Shown here: piece by piece, positions 10,819-50,922 of the stretch | Layout of the letters: each line of letters begins with the position of its first letter | Position numbering within the stretch: position 1 is the stretch's first letter | Origin: Minisyncoccota bacterium | GTDB taxonomy: Bacteria; Patescibacteriota; Minisyncoccia; Phycocordibacterales; SW-6-46-9 | Reading direction: 5' to 3' | NCBI GenBank assembly: GCA_040904005.1 | Contig: JBBDUH010000018.1 | Span: 1-51,095 of the forward strand | Length of the DNA: 51,095 bases | Position numbers and translations under genes: made by a program | The notes under the pieces: model-generated | What the model was told of the DNA's origin: nothing | The model's input: the letters and a program-made list of their open reading frames with translations, nothing else | Database searches by the model: none

Positions 10819-11619
10819 TTATCGTACCTGATCATAGAGAGCAAAACGCACGGCACCAGTAGCTGGATCCTTCAAGAGCTTTACTGCCTGCTGACCTTCA
10901 GCCCAGGCCGGAGTCTGCTTCACCGCATTCGGTGAGTAGAAGTGACGCGTGGTTAGTGCCAACGGGCGAGAACTTTCCGGAGCTAAGTAAACCTCCTTTG
11001 CTATTGCTAGCGCTGTCTCCCAGGCATATCCTTCACTAGAGTACCAACGCGAGATGTTATGCTCGTAGCGTTTATCATATGGGTTAAGCCCAGAGAACTG
11101 ACGCGAGTGCTTGGCAACAGATTCATAGGTACGGCCTGTGTAACCAGTGTCAACACGGTTACGAACCACCCAACCAATAATGCGTTGCTCATCAGCACGC
11201 TTGGTTTCTGAGTACACAATTCGCGCCAACCAGAGAATTTCACGTTTATCAGTTTGTGTCATTACAGGATTGTCTGTCTGACTACGCTCGGCCCGTTTCT
11301 GTGCATCCTTATGCACCTCCTTTGGGGTCTTAGCATTCGTACGCTCGAGTGTAGAAAGCACGTTATAACCACTTACCTTCTCAGAAGCAGCTAGAGCAAC
11401 TGAGGTAAAGTTGGCCATCCAGCCACCAGCGAGGGCGAGTTTTGTATTTGTATCTTCTGCTTCCGCTGCCACCATCTCTATGGTTGCAGCCTCAGCAACT
11501 TGTGTATTGTAAAGAACGCCTCCTGCAGTGAACTGAAGACTGACAGTAGCTCCAACAAAGAGAGCAAAAAAGGCCAGTCCAAGTGTGTAAACCTCGATCG
11601 TATCCGAATGATAATTCAT
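10819..11619 (-). CDS. SleB/CwlJ-like cell-wall hydrolase (Hydrolase_2) with N-terminal TM segment
   Basis: 266 aa. The C-terminal half (LARIVYSETK..VVRNRV..RQFSG) matches the Hydrolase_2 pattern. Confidence 0.7.
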   Translation of the reverse strand: MNYHSDTIEVYTLGLAFFALFVGATVSLQFTAGGVLYNTQVAEAATIEMVAAEAEDTNTKLALAGGWMANFTSVALAASEKVSGYNVLSTLERTNAKTPKEVHKDAQKRAERSQTDNPVMTQTDKREILWLARIVYSETKRADEQRIIGWVVRNRVDTGYTGRTYESVAKHSRQFSGLNPYDKRYEHNISRWYSSEGYAWETALAIAKEVYLAPESSRPLALTTRHFYSPNAVKQTPAWAEGQQAVKLLKDPATGAVRFALYDQVR

Positions 11620-14235: not shown

Positions 14236-15895
14236 ACACTTCCACAATAGAGATATCCTCTATCTTAAACTGCAACTTCTTTTTAAAGCCAAATGTACTC
14301 TTTTCTAACGCACCCAGCACAGTCACCTGCTGACCACACTCCACCTCCTTCATTGATTTGGGCGCAAAGAAGCAGATGCCCTCCTGCTCATGCTCACCAT
14401 CGGTAAGAGTGAGTGAGACATGTTCACCACCGGCGCCAAAGATACGCTTGCCATCCACATGCACACCGCTAACCTGAAACAACGGCGCGGCAAAACCCAT
14501 CCCAAACGGGCCGAGCTGCTCTAATGAATTCAAAAGACCCCAGGAAATGTCGGCCAGCGTTGCAGCCACCGGATCATAATCACCATTATCAGCGGCCACC
14601 TCATGATCGGCAACCACTGCTGACAAGGCCGCGGCAAACTCCTCCGTCTCGCCGGCCAACTCAAAACCGCCGGCCATCTCATGACCACCGAAGGCCGGCA
14701 CCAGCGCCTCATCCAGCTGGGAGAGCATCCCCACCACATTATGGCGGGTTGAACGGGCCGAGCCCTTCTTGGTTTCACTGCCATCCGCCTGACCCCACAG
14801 AAATACCGGCCGATCATAATCATCGGAAAGTCCGTGCGCCACCGGACCCAGCAAAGCCGGCTTCCACTCCTCTGAACCAACCGCTATTACTGGCTGGTCA
14901 GCGACGGCTGCTGCCATGGAAAAGATCTCCTCACGCAATGCGCCACTACGGCGCTTGCGCTCCCGATAAAGACGATTGAGTTCATGGGCGTACTCCTTTC
15001 CCTCCGCATGGTTACGCGTTGTTAGCATACGTAGAGCTGCCAGCGGCTGATCGAGTCGACTTGCAGCATTAATATGAGCACCGAGCGTAAAGCCGATATC
15101 AACCTCCGTCAGCTCCCGCCCCTGAATCCGCCCTTTCTCAAACAGCTCCTTGAGCCCCGGCCGGGTAGTACGGCGCAAAATCTTCATCCCAAACTGAGCC
15201 AGGGCGCGGTTCTCACCCACCAGCGGCACCATGTCGCTGATGGTCGCGATAGCGGCCAGACCTAGCTGCCCCTTAGAAAAGTTTTCGTGAAGATTGAAGC
15301 GCTCGTCCATCTCTAGAGCCTGAAGGCACTTGAAGACAACACCCGCACCGCAAAGAGACTTGAACGGATACGTCTCATCTGCAAGCGCTGGGTTGATAAT
15401 AATGTCGGCCAGTGGATCCTTCTTTCCAGCCACGTGGTGATCAAGAATAATCACATCCATTCCCTTCTCCTTTGCCAGCTCAACAGCGGCGTTGGAGCGG
15501 ATGCCACAGTCAATGGTGATTATTAGGTCTGCCTTGTCGGCAGCAAACTGCTCGACCTGACCAACCTTAAGGCCAAAGCCCTCTATATCTCGCTTGGGAA
15601 TGTAAATCTGAAAATTCTCGTACCCAAGCTCACCGAAAAGATCATGCAGCATCGCCGCCGCCGGAATGCCGTCGGTATCAAAATCACTAAAGATCACAAT
15701 CTTCTGCTTTTCTTCTATCGCCTGATGCAGACGATCAACAAAGTCCCGCATCTGCCGAAACAGATACGGATCATGCAGGGCCGCGCCGTACTCGGGGTTG
15801 AGAAAGGCGTCAACGTCGGCAATATTGCGGCTGGCCAGCACGGTCTGTGCCAGTGGATGTAGGTCATCGACTGTCATGCTGGTACATACTAGCAC
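14234..15895 (-). CDS. recJ: single-stranded-DNA-specific exonuclease RecJ
   Basis: 553 aa with the DHH-family motifs DFDTDG, ITIDCG and LDHHV, plus a DHHA1 region. The start may instead be the ATG 18 nt downstream. Confidence 0.9.
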   Translation of the reverse strand: MLVCTSMTVDDLHPLAQTVLASRNIADVDAFLNPEYGAALHDPYLFRQMRDFVDRLHQAIEEKQKIVIFSDFDTDGIPAAAMLHDLFGELGYENFQIYIPKRDIEGFGLKVGQVEQFAADKADLIITIDCGIRSNAAVELAKEKGMDVIILDHHVAGKKDPLADIIINPALADETYPFKSLCGAGVVFKCLQALEMDERFNLHENFSKGQLGLAAIATISDMVPLVGENRALAQFGMKILRRTTRPGLKELFEKGRIQGRELTEVDIGFTLGAHINAASRLDQPLAALRMLTTRNHAEGKEYAHELNRLYRERKRRSGALREEIFSMAAAVADQPVIAVGSEEWKPALLGPVAHGLSDDYDRPVFLWGQADGSETKKGSARSTRHNVVGMLSQLDEALVPAFGGHEMAGGFELAGETEEFAAALSAVVADHEVAADNGDYDPVAATLADISWGLLNSLEQLGPFGMGFAAPLFQVSGVHVDGKRIFGAGGEHVSLTLTDGEHEQEGICFFAPKSMKEVECGQQVTVLGALEKSTFGFKKKLQFKIEDISIVEV

Positions 15896-15933
15896 GACAA
15901 AAATTTATAATATCTAATTCCTAATGTCTAAGT

Positions 15934-15954
15934 GTGCAACATTGAGTGTTGCAC
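15934..15954. repeat. GTGCAACA palindrome, copy 2
   Basis: GTGCAACAT-TGA-GTGTTGCAC followed by AAAAGTACAA. Lies in the divergent recJ/HIT spacer. Confidence 0.6.
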
Positions 15955-16021
15955 AAAAGTACAATCTTAAACTTTTCTGTCAAAAAAGCGCAAGAGCAGC
16001 AAAATGATATACTGATAATAT

Positions 16022-16411
16022 ATGTCAACCATTTTTGAAAAAATTATTGCCGGTGAAATTCCTGCTAATAAGGTGTACGAAGATAACGAATGTCTTTCCA
16101 TTCTAGACATCAACCCAGTTGCTGATGGTCACCTACTTTTAATACCTAAAGAATCTTATCGCTGGATCCAGGATGTGCCGGACGAACTTACTTCTCACCT
16201 CTTTGTCAAAGCAAAAGACCTAATAAAGGCACAGAAAGCCGCGCTCGGTTGTGACTATGTGCAGATCAGTGTTGTTGGCAAGGATGTACCGCACGTCCAC
16301 ATTCACCTTATCCCTCGCTACTTTGATGATGGGCTTGAAAGCTGGGAGACACATGAATATGAAAACGGTCAGCCAGAAAAAATCGCCACCCAGATCGCTG
16401 AACGTTTGTAA
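16022..16411 (+). CDS. HIT-family (histidine triad) hydrolase
   Basis: 129 aa with the HVHIHLIP triad motif. Confidence 0.9.
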   Translation: MSTIFEKIIAGEIPANKVYEDNECLSILDINPVADGHLLLIPKESYRWIQDVPDELTSHLFVKAKDLIKAQKAALGCDYVQISVVGKDVPHVHIHLIPRYFDDGLESWETHEYENGQPEKIATQIAERL

Positions 16412-16416
16412 AAGTT

Positions 16417-16472
16417 TGTTATATAACACTTCGAATCTTGTTATATAACAAATCTTTAGCTGTTATATAACA
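16417..16472. promoter_or_regulatory. Three perfect TGTTATATAACA palindromes at 22-bp phasing
   Basis: The exact 12-mers are at 16417-16428, 16439-16450 and 16461-16472. The third extends to the 18-bp palindrome AGCTGTTATATAACAGCT. The array sits between the 3' ends of convergent genes. Confidence 0.7.
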
Positions 16473-16487
16473 GCTCACCGGTGTATT

Positions 16488-16520
16488 AAAAAAGCCACTC
16501 ACTGTGTAAGCTGGGTGGCT
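16488..16520 (-). terminator. Rho-independent terminator of the 267-aa gene
   Basis: The - strand has AAGCCAC-loop-GTGGCTT followed by TTTTTT. Confidence 0.7.
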
Positions 16521-16539
16521 TTGATCTAATTGTTTGAAG

Positions 16540-17343
16540 TTAGGAAATTTGGAAAGTCTTTTCTACTTTCACGTCTCCAAATTCAGATTTCCCCTTAAGG
16601 AAAATCTCACCATTTTCTCCAATCGTTACCTTACATCCAAGATAATTAGTAGAGAATTTTGTAGTAGAAGCTTTGCCGTAAGTTGGATACATCTCACTCA
16701 CAGCTACTCCCTGACCTTTTTCCCAGACAAAAACCTGAAAATAGTCATGAGTCGCATCAACGCTTCGGCTACAATGCCTGGCAACAACAACGCATATGTC
16801 TTCATCATCGTGATAGATGTCATAATGCCAGCTTGCTCCACCAATTTTAGGAACATTATTTCCAACCCAAGGATATTTAAACTCCTCAGAGTTTTTTGGC
16901 TCTTTCTTGCTTTCAAGAGCTTCTTCATGAGCAGACATGTCAAATTTTTTAACCAATGAGACATTGCCGGCAAGATCACATTCTTTTATGAAGATTTTTC
17001 CAGTGCCATCCTTGTAACCAAAAACAACACTTTCATTATCTTCTTTCAGAAGCTTAACTCCATTTATGGAATTCCACGGCTTATTCGTTGTAAAGGCTTG
17101 ACCAGGACGCCATAACTGAAACCCTGTATCATAGATTGGGTCTGGTTTGTCGGAATGGGAAACCATTAACCTGTCGTAATAGCTCATACCATCTCCGGTA
17201 TCTACACTTTTGCCACCGTTTTTGAGGTTAAATTTGGAACCCTCGATCTCGTCAGAGGCATTAATATACTCCTCAATAATTGAGGGTATTTCTTTCGCGT
17301 CTTTTTCGTAATGAGAAAAAGGTCGTACTTTCAGATCAGTCAT
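16540..17343 (-). CDS. hypothetical protein (267 aa), AT-rich orphan
   Basis: Long ORF with its own promoter and terminator. No family recognised. Visibly AT-richer than its neighbours. Confidence 0.65.
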   Translation of the reverse strand: MTDLKVRPFSHYEKDAKEIPSIIEEYINASDEIEGSKFNLKNGGKSVDTGDGMSYYDRLMVSHSDKPDPIYDTGFQLWRPGQAFTTNKPWNSINGVKLLKEDNESVVFGYKDGTGKIFIKECDLAGNVSLVKKFDMSAHEEALESKKEPKNSEEFKYPWVGNNVPKIGGASWHYDIYHDDEDICVVVARHCSRSVDATHDYFQVFVWEKGQGVAVSEMYPTYGKASTTKFSTNYLGCKVTIGENGEIFLKGKSEFGDVKVEKTFQIS

Positions 17344-17383
17344 CTTAGTAGGATTTGATTGTTAAAGATTTAGTTCGTTTATA

Positions 17384-17411
17384 TTTATATCATACACAGA
17401 GGTATTGTCAA
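17384..17411 (-). promoter_or_regulatory. Candidate promoter of the 267-aa gene
   Basis: The - strand has TTGACA (17406-17411), a 16-nt spacer and TATAAA (17384-17389). Confidence 0.45.
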
Positions 17412-17654
17412 GTAAATACCGACGCTTCAGTTCAAAATCGTACAAAATTACTCTAATAACAGGCTTGAATTTAAACTATATTTTAGAGCAGTATGACTGT
17501 AAAAAATCCGCGAATTTTTTGAGCATGTGACTATAACACTACTTTGCGAAGATAAATTCAAGCAGTTCTAGGCGCAACTGAAGCGCAAGTGAGCCGCACA
17601 AGATGAGTGCGGTGAACGCGCCCTGGAAGGAAGCAACACCGAAATGCACCGAAT

Positions 17655-32312: not shown

Positions 32313-33086
32313 ATGAATACTGAAAAAAAGCTACAAGACTTAGGTTTATCCAACAAAGAGGCTAAGGTTTATCTGGCTCTTTTAGAGCTAAACCAGGCTC
32401 CAGCAAGCGATATTGCCAGGAAGGCACAGCTTAATCGTGCTACCACCTACGTAATACTCGACTCACTTATAGAGAAAGCCTTAGTTAGTACGTATGACCA
32501 GGAAAAGACTACCCAGTACGTAGCCAGTGAGCCGGAAACCCTAAAAAGCTTGGTGAAGGAAAGACAGATAGAGTGGAAAGAGAAAGAAAAAACAGCAGAA
32601 GATCTAATCCCGAGTTTAGAATCAATTCATAATGTAGGTGATGAAAAGCCAACCATCCGCTTCTTTGACGGAGAAAAAGGTTTGGAGCAAAGTGCAGAAG
32701 AATTTTATAAAAATTTCTATAAAGGTAAAGAAACTGTCAAAATCTTTTACTCCCGAGATAGAATTGAGAATAATATCTCCAAAGAACTGTTGGATCACTT
32801 AAAGAATTCTCGTTTGCGCAAAAAAGTCAGGTCAGAAACTATATATAATTATTCAAAAGGAAAGTACGACGATGACACCGGCGACCGTATTAAGGTAAAT
32901 GATGATAAATTCCCAATCTCGATCGACTTAGAGATTTACAGCGACAGAGTACTCATTTCGACACTTAAAGAAAAACTGTCGGCAATCCTGATAAAGGATA
33001 CAGATATTGCCGATTCATTTAAAACCCTTTTTCGCTTAGCACAGATTGGAGCCAAAGTTGAGGAAGAGAAAGAAAATAAAAATTAA
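32313..33086 (+). CDS. TrmB-family transcriptional regulator
   Basis: 257 aa. The N-terminal wHTH (LGLSNKEAKVYLALLELNQAPASDIARKAQLNRATTYVILDSLIEKALV) is typical of TrmB. AT-rich. Confidence 0.8.
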   Translation: MNTEKKLQDLGLSNKEAKVYLALLELNQAPASDIARKAQLNRATTYVILDSLIEKALVSTYDQEKTTQYVASEPETLKSLVKERQIEWKEKEKTAEDLIPSLESIHNVGDEKPTIRFFDGEKGLEQSAEEFYKNFYKGKETVKIFYSRDRIENNISKELLDHLKNSRLRKKVRSETIYNYSKGKYDDDTGDRIKVNDDKFPISIDLEIYSDRVLISTLKEKLSAILIKDTDIADSFKTLFRLAQIGAKVEEEKENKN

Positions 33087-50059: not shown

Positions 50060-50139
50060 AATTATGAAAAAGTTTCTAAGATAAGCGAATCAGGTTGATA
50101 ATAATATGCAATAATCACTGTACGTAGTAGATAATATTT

Positions 50140-50922
50140 ATGGGCGAGAATCTCGGACAACATTTTTTAAAGGATAAAGAGGCGCTGGCGGCGATCGTGG
50201 CCGCTGGGGAGCTTTCGTCTACAGATACTGTTTTGGAGGTCGGGCCGGGGGAGGGAGCGCTAACACAACCGCTGCTGGAGACAGGAGCGAAGGTGGTAGC
50301 TGTCGAGAAGGACCCAGCACTCATTGCAGAATTGGAACAAACATTTCAATCTGAAATAAAAAGCGGGCAGTTAGAGCTCATACAATCAGACATCCGCGAC
50401 CTTGATGTTGCTAATAAGCTAAAAGCTGTCGACTATAAGCTAGTGGCTAATATTCCGTATTACTTAACCGGCCAATTGATCGCCGAGACGCTCACCAGCA
50501 CCCATCAACCCACAAAGGTTGTGCTTTTAATCCAGAAGGAGGTGGCCGAACGAATTATTGCGGCCGATGGCAAGGAGAGTATTCTAGCCCTTAGTGTAAA
50601 GGTTTTTGGTACTCCAGAAATAATTCAGGTTGTACCGGCCGAGAGTTTCAGTCCGCCACCAAAGGTTGATTCAGCAATCCTCCAGATCAGCGATATTTCG
50701 CGCGATTTTTTTAGTGATTTGAGCGAAGAAGAGTTTTTTGCCCTCATCAAGCGCGGCTTTGGCCACAAGCGCAAAACACTCGCCAACAACCTCGCCACCG
50801 ACCCGAGATTTACAAAAGAGCAGACCGAGAAAGCTCTTGAGGATTGCAAACTAAAGACAAACATCCGCGCTGAGCGACTCACACTTGATAATTGGCGCTG
50901 TTTATCCGAAAATTTAATCTAA
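50140..50922 (+). CDS. rsmA: 16S rRNA (adenine1518/1519-N6)-dimethyltransferase
   Basis: 260 aa with LGQHFL, EVGPGEGALT and ANIPYY. Confidence 0.93.
   Translation: MGENLGQHFLKDKEALAAIVAAGELSSTDTVLEVGPGEGALTQPLLETGAKVVAVEKDPALIAELEQTFQSEIKSGQLELIQSDIRDLDVANKLKAVDYKLVANIPYYLTGQLIAETLTSTHQPTKVVLLIQKEVAERIIAADGKESILALSVKVFGTPEIIQVVPAESFSPPPKVDSAILQISDISRDFFSDLSEEEFFALIKRGFGHKRKTLANNLATDPRFTKEQTEKALEDCKLKTNIRAERLTLDNWRCLSENLI

Follow-up and report, generated by a model that had tools for sequence, protein, structure and literature searches.

Small DNA-binding proteins of the swapped-hairpin fold are known mainly from three groups. AbrB, Abh and SpoVT of Bacillus (PF04014 N-domain; PDB 1yfb, 1z0r, 2k1n, 2w1t) are multimeric and act at many chromosomal sites as well as on their own promoters; the AbrB tetramer spans about two helical turns, which fits a 22-bp phasing of sites. 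The AbrB-fold antitoxins MazE, VapB and PrlF (PDB 2mru, 3zvk, 5l6l) bind as dimers to palindromic repeats in their own promoters. MraZ, a member of the same superfamily, recognises several short boxes in the dcw promoter, which precede its own gene in a fixed helical phase. Autoregulation is the rule for the AbrB-fold proteins MazE, VapB, AbrB and MraZ. A further type of system, parS/ParB, relies on palindromes with TGTT...AACA arms, present in a handful of copies per genome. In the Patescibacteria (CPR), which encode very few transcription factors, gene regulation is almost unknown, and a literature search found nothing on AbrB in this group.

The array of palindromes described here, from a member of the Patescibacteria, is probably a binding-site array for a mini-AbrB regulator specific to this lineage, with the swapped-hairpin fold of AbrB, MazE and SpoVT; from sequence comparison we assign this reading a probability of about 0.68. 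The proposed protein would resemble the Bacillus group in fold, small size, multimeric state and use of many chromosomal sites together with its own promoter. It consists of a single domain of about 60 residues that lacks the C-domain of AbrB or SpoVT, and its candidate sites are perfect 12-bp palindromes, whereas AbrB has no strict consensus; the dispersal of the arrays at gene ends and the switching of specificity between lineages are further differences. Homologues of the protein carry the database name 'antitoxin' but, unlike the genes of MazE, VapB and PrlF, the mini-AbrB gene is not adjoined by a conserved toxin partner, and the sites are scattered over the genome beyond its own promoter. 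In contrast to MraZ, which has two fused domains, direct TGGGN repeats and a fixed dcw location, the motif is palindromic and found at many loci. The unit differs from parS in being 12 bp rather than 16 bp long, in lacking a CACGTG core and in being arranged in phased arrays.

The source genome (G000) is a draft assembly of 552,940 bp in 77 contigs, 74% complete and with 47% GC; the window, i.e. the whole stretch of DNA analysed, is one contig (C18) of 51,095 nt. An exact search of the window confirmed the three copies of the perfect 12-bp palindrome TGTTATATAACA reported in a preliminary description of the sequence, with a centre-to-centre distance of 22 bp between successive copies and a total array length of 56 bp; as had also been reported, the third copy is embedded in a perfect 18-bp palindrome, AGCTGTTATATAACAGCT (16458-16475). 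The array follows the stop codon of a HIT-family gene closely, as described, with a gap of 5 nt (16411 to 16417). It is followed after 18 nt by a terminator-type hairpin, which stands between the array and the stop codon of a convergent 267-aa open reading frame and which carries a T6 run on the minus strand, serving the 267-aa gene, and merely TTTG on the plus strand, serving HIT. The coordinates are collected in Table 1, together with the further loci discussed below.

Table 1. Features of the array locus (positions in the window) and further loci that carry the motif or its variants
Feature	Position or locus	Strand	Details
HIT-family (Hint-like) gene, 129 aa	16022..16411	+	ORF; Pfam PF01230 HIT, 1.2e-20
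Site 1, TGTTATATAACA	16417..16428	.	perfect; inside ~44-bp stretch missing from G001
Spacer 1, CTTCGAATCT, 10 bp	16429..16438	.	
Site 2, TGTTATATAACA	16439..16450	.	perfect
Spacer 2, AATCTTTAGC, 10 bp	16451..16460	.	
Site 3, TGTTATATAACA	16461..16472	.	perfect; copy kept in G001
Terminator-type hairpin, common to both convergent genes	16491..16522	.	fold and alignment with G001
AT-rich orphan gene, 267 aa; neighbour, not part of the element	16540..17343	-	ORF
22-bp-spaced pair	G000 C2		3 nt past L19 stop, ahead of terminator
Site and adjacent degenerate copy	G000 C41		8 nt past ArgRS stop, ahead of terminator
Site and degenerate copy 22 bp off	G000 C50		adjoining terminator
Tandem sites upstream of AbrB-like gene	L159/L181		three contiguous in L159
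Four sites upstream of AbrB-like gene	L164/L183		20 nt from ATG
Motif in tandem upstream of AbrB-like gene	L122/L070		
Two contiguous sites upstream of AbrB-like gene	G001 L187		
Three sites upstream of AbrB-like gene	L191-L194		12-bp spacing (contiguous)
One site upstream of AbrB-like gene	L197		17 nt upstream; five perfect sites within 4.7 kb of locus
TTATATAA core, twice, upstream of AbrB-like gene	L195/196		
TGTTACGTAGCA/TGCTACGTAACA upstream of AbrB-like gene	G040		7 copies in genome, 3 in control
TGTTACGTAGCA/TGCTACGTAACA upstream of AbrB-like gene	G023		6 copies in genome, 0 in control
Units TAGTATATACTA	G038		pattern TAGTAYRTACTA, one mismatch allowed: 23, control 2
Units TAGTA/TAATA-YR-TACTA/TATTA	G025		pattern TAGTAYRTACTA, one mismatch allowed: 40, control 2

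The preliminary description had placed the array outside a promoter position for either neighbour, and this holds for the HIT locus, where it lies between the HIT stop and the terminator of two convergent genes. A promoter consensus scan of the array found no promoter, and the 12-mer contains no hexamer with both an A at -11 and a T at -7. A search of 15500-17500 against Rfam gave no match at E <= 1. In G001, a genome of the same genus, the HIT ortholog has the same 3' end and the hairpin is kept, and one copy of the motif is retained at the same place after HIT, so that the conservation in relatives proposed as a check was found for the site. It does not extend to the orphan gene, since a 166-aa orphan occupies the same slot in G001 and is unrelated to the 267-aa protein (BLASTP E = 0.79). 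A Pfam scan assigned no family or recognisable domain to the flanking orphan proteins. As the orphans differ between the two genomes, a module made of the array plus an orphan protein fails, and the flanking orphan was rejected as binder or module partner.

The motif is rare. In the source genome TGTTATATAACA has seven perfect copies at four loci and three copies with one mismatch, compared with about 0.05 perfect copies expected from base composition; a reversed-pattern control gave none of either kind, and a chance origin is excluded at the level of the genome. Copies with two mismatches are at background level (13 vs 18 in the control). The genome-wide pattern search that had been recommended thus returned a rare and phased motif rather than one common at random spacing. 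Within the window there is no other full copy, as first noted, and this remains so when two mismatches are allowed; the half-site-like strings mentioned at 35332-35382 are present, yet they are merely the arms of an unrelated GC-rich hairpin. Among 201 genomes from 118 families of the order, two or more copies of the motif are found only in family f1 (G000, G001, G004 and G005), and in G002 and G003, both at least 94% complete, neither the motif nor an AbrB-like protein was found. The G001 sites lie at 20 kb and at 650-653 kb of a 784-kb contig. Arrays occupy convergent, tandem and divergent spacers in about the proportions of all spacers, and often abut stop codons; at least three of those in the source genome sit between a stop codon and a terminator. 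The array is characterised by a TATATA-core variant, strict 22-bp phasing, free AT-rich spacers and a placement between stop codon and terminator. Titles and abstracts in the literature offered only incidental text matches to the motif, and none in a bacterial regulatory context.

Two array-bearing spacers of relatives (L139 and L110) coincide with breaks in the source assembly, one with a run of N in C60 (~11020-11120) and one with the start of C55 and the end of C17, and the assembly may under-report arrays. Several short freshwater metagenome contigs unrelated to the source genome (L069, L071, L075, L084, L088, L094, L109 and others) carry 5-12 dense, irregularly spaced TGTTATATAACA-like sites, which may represent a phage or plasmid origin or else a control region.

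To describe the arrays as a class, those of the source genome and of the three other f1 genomes were pooled with those of metagenome relatives, that is, contigs syntenic with contigs of the source genome and encoding proteins 60-98% identical to its proteins. The 43 unique arrays comprise 93 sites, 78 of them perfect. The spacing is 22 bp in 43/50 cases, 12 bp in 6/50 and 35 bp in 1/50. The spacers are 74% AT and distinct in 39/43, their length being fixed and their sequence free, and a purine directly follows the site in 88% of cases. Copy number varies at orthologous loci: the three HIT-locus copies are matched in G001 by a single copy, which aligns with site 3 and is followed by the same terminator; the L19 locus has two copies in the source genome and three in relatives; the C50 locus has one copy plus a degenerate one as against three; and at the start of ksgA relatives have two or three abutting copies, the source genome having only a decayed TAGTAGATAATA. 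In the orthologous spacers at ksgA, at trmD-mnmA and at the HIT locus, arrays have been gained or lost. Since orthologous loci differ in flanks and copy number but keep perfect 12-mers, the comparison points to real, selected sites whose phase is likewise under selection, and neither copy-and-paste nor recent slippage would fit this pattern.

Two of these loci have features of their own. In the window (50090-50142) the ksgA start lies four codons ahead of the LGQHFL motif, with no Shine-Dalgarno sequence and with TAGATAAT 4 nt before the ATG; in relatives TGTTATATAACA occupies this register, with 3-9 nt between it and the ATG, a position that may resemble that of an extended -10; this arrangement suggests that the ksgA mRNA is leaderless. 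After the L19 array, a metagenome relative (L100, 3871-4536) has a free-standing LAGLIDADG-type gene (PF14528, 4e-07) where the source genome has an unrelated 260-aa coiled-coil ORF, so this slot is variable, as at the HIT locus.

Several arrays adjoin an ORF of about 60 codons whose product is of the AbrB/MazE/SpoVT type and scores above the Pfam cut-off for PF04014 (consensus ..RKLQRTGRAG.SYMVTLPK..V..LGWRERQKVT....GKKLIIEDW). The motif stands in tandem upstream of the PF04014 gene in every f1-type locus found; with near-identical metagenome contigs treated as one, there are about eight such loci with the motif on the gene's own promoter. The G001 protein has 61 residues. Only 19 clusters in 5.8 billion proteins make up this small family. 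An AlphaFold model (pLDDT 71) has its best matches in AbrB, MazE and SpoVT, and a profile search of the PDB returned C56 of pSSVi and the AbrB N-domain; the statistical weight of the matches from both comparisons is low (E 0.08-0.9). An extended -10, gaTGnTA...T, comes after the proximal site in L197, L164 and G040, and in L197 and L164 the ATG lies 6 nt beyond it, so that the regulator mRNA of these two loci is predicted to be leaderless or near-leaderless. With the extended -10 directly past the proximal site, a bound protein would occlude the regulator's own promoter.

No PF04014 gene was found in the 74%-complete source assembly. In G001 and L164 a polysaccharide-synthesis island harbours the regulator gene, which is about 4.8 kb away from secA, and in L191 and L193 it is placed among similar glycosyltransferase or flippase genes, L193 sharing genes of the island. 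The counterparts of the flanking genes in the source genome are found at the end of contig C73 and the start of C63; the regulator locus accordingly falls in an assembly gap, and it is plausible from this synteny that the gene is present in the source genome. L122 (3227-3370) and L070 contain a second, type-2 AbrB-like ORF (..RKVTRVGQRSLSVVIPAEIVDELG..), which has an in-frame TAA after MSKGK and its own TGTTACGTAcTA site ahead of a TATTAT box; this ORF is possibly a pseudogene, or its start is unusual. G001 has one perfect 24-bp TGTTACGTAGCATGCTACGTAACA dyad pair (C2, 115157-115180), which is the type-2 motif, with a TACGTA core in place of the TATATA of type 1; a search at E <= 0.001 detected no type-2 regulator gene in G001.

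In other families of the order, homologues of the AbrB-like gene have other 12-bp palindromes upstream, of the TGTTACGTAACA and TAGTATATACTA types. Each variant is enriched genome-wide, in tandem arrays, only where the AbrB-like gene carries it, and not in G000 or G001 (Table 1). Most simply, this would reflect a DNA-binding protein that regulates its own gene and whose specificity has evolved together with its sites. The 12-bp arrays of G025 are repeatedly flanked by, or interleaved with, a second perfect palindrome, TACTACAGTTAACTGTAGTA (L206, L207, L209 and L213), with 34-bp periods.

The rarity, phasing and conservation of the motif, its restriction to one family and its tie to the AbrB-like gene are direct observations; because motif and gene co-occur, we infer that the AbrB-like protein is the putative binder. 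The preliminary description had proposed that the palindromes are phased sites of a dimeric DNA-binding protein, and the array, with its rare and strictly phased motif, fits that proposal. Each regulator dimer would read one 12-bp palindrome (extended site YTGTTATATAACAR), and the fixed 10-bp AT-rich spacers would set successive dimers two helical turns apart on the same face of the DNA, allowing cooperative binding, probably as a dimer of dimers as in AbrB. Sites upstream of the extended -10 of the regulator's own gene would form an auto-repressing operator, and the HIT-locus array would be one of many dispersed copies at gene boundaries. If this is correct, the mini-AbrB and its scattered palindromes would rank among the few regulator-and-site networks of the Patescibacteria that are tractable. 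The repeated switches of mini-AbrB specificity between families would provide a natural series of protein/DNA specificity variants, and with a protein of 60 residues and sites of 12 bp the system is small enough for direct in vitro testing.

It is conceivable that a different protein, TrmB-like, ParB-like or nucleoid-associated, binds the sites and that the AbrB-like gene is only the most constant member of its regulon. The AbrB assignment rests on co-occurrence, no AbrB-like gene was seen in the source genome, and arrays are found at many non-promoter places, as sites of a nucleoid protein would be. We nevertheless consider a different binder unlikely, as the motif changes lineage by lineage together with the AbrB-like protein, always on the promoter of that gene, and autoregulation is usual for this fold. 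The nucleoid-organising sites suggested earlier are likewise not supported; comparative data single out the ~60-aa protein of AbrB/SpoVT fold. The TrmB-like protein at 32313, put forward previously as a candidate binder, has no copy of the motif near its gene and was dropped, as was a 99-aa winged-helix protein near a G001 array, whose matches are under the Pfam cut-offs and which is not recurrent. A centromere-like partition site or a replication iteron, both also suggested at the outset, would account for a 22-bp period, that of classical plasmid iterons, and for outer TGTT...AACA arms that resemble parS. However, parS requires the 16-bp TGTTNCACGTGNAACA, the present unit being 12 bp with an ATAT centre, and near-canonical parS-like 16-mers are found elsewhere in the window, about 1.1 kb apart (38036-38051, TGTTTCACCAGAAACA, two mismatches; 39124-39139, TGTTACACGTAAAACA, one mismatch), with a ParB_N gene on contig C61. 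Psychrobacter plasmids do carry GTTATATAAC iterons with a 22-bp period by a gene with a Rep_3-type-looking N-terminus (judged by eye), but these genuine iterons are identical direct repeats adjoining the rep gene, whereas the spacers vary here, neither a rep nor a par gene adjoins the array and the sites are spread across four or more chromosomal loci. A partition or replication role is thus highly improbable.

A role of the motif in RNA or single-stranded DNA, in which stems in the HIT 3' UTR would stabilise the transcript or help to terminate it like REP-type palindromes, draws on the folding of the array: a 17-bp AU-rich stem joins copies 1 and 2, copy 3 folds into a separate hairpin, the fold has -39.8 kcal/mol with z = -6.6, and three arrays of the source genome lie between stop codon and terminator. 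Such pairing is, however, automatic when any palindrome is repeated; only one copy stands at this place in G001; 12-bp spacing gives no room for a loop; the motif also occurs upstream of -10 boxes, where it is untranscribed; a loop needs no exact length of 10 nt, yet 43/50 spacings are exact; and Rfam holds no match. These points make an RNA-level role the weaker rival, with small odds in our estimation, about one in ten in plain terms of likelihood. The array might also be a selfish or neutral repeat, either a miniature mobile element or a functionless product of 22-bp slippage, given that copy number differs among close relatives, that arrays come and go at ksgA, trmD-mnmA and the HIT locus, and that many other small intergenic elements populate the genome. 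Yet the spacers vary within and between arrays while the 12-mers are perfect, which is the opposite of what copy-and-paste or slippage leaves behind; the arrays are not accompanied by terminal repeats, target duplications or a transposase, and the motif is tied to a DNA-binding gene. A selfish or neutral origin is therefore quite improbable, and a REP/BIME or MITE-type repeat was rejected on the same grounds, with only the 12-mers conserved and 39/43 spacers distinct.

A scan of all species genomes for GTTATATAAC-N12-GTTATATAAC gave 52 matches which, apart from three family members, belong to unrelated systems: the Psychrobacter plasmid iterons, a Bacillaceae site pair, and repeats in Kiritimatiellia and Paludibacter were set aside as look-alikes. 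The Bacillaceae pair (L020-L023, L029, L031, L042, L051 and others) is conserved just downstream of a TGTATAAT box, between IclR-type-like and lactate-permease-like genes (N-termini judged by eye), and has the same 22-bp phase in an unrelated phylum.

Within the mini-AbrB reading, the role of the array at the HIT locus is a separate question. With at least three arrays of the source genome placed after a stop codon and ahead of a terminator, this locus is not accounted for by a classical operator role, and since there is no promoter to regulate, the array could, speculatively, be a roadblock, an insulator or a reservoir for the regulator, bordering the conserved HIT gene and the variable orphan slot. 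Why putative high-affinity arrays should stand at gene ends and not at promoters is the question this raises. In one tentative and rather doubtful pair of linked readings, mini-AbrB arrays are protein-dependent boundary elements after stop codons and HIT enzymes are partners of the regulator. A cooperative AbrB-type filament would then block read-through or convergent transcription, or insulate variable orphan slots, and such elements, if real, would be a programmable, protein-based counterpart to terminators.

Some observations hint at a link between HIT and the regulator. Sites directly follow three different HIT genes in G000 and G001, two of them in G001, where two HIT neighbours would arise by chance about once in 1000 by a rough post-hoc estimate. 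In G023 (L199; C2, ~21.1-21.8 kb) a terminator is followed by three type-2 12-mers of the TGTTACGTA type in tandem, a TATTAT -10, HIT, a 5-nt gap and the AbrB-like gene, an arrangement in which HIT and the mini regulator are predicted to form one operon.
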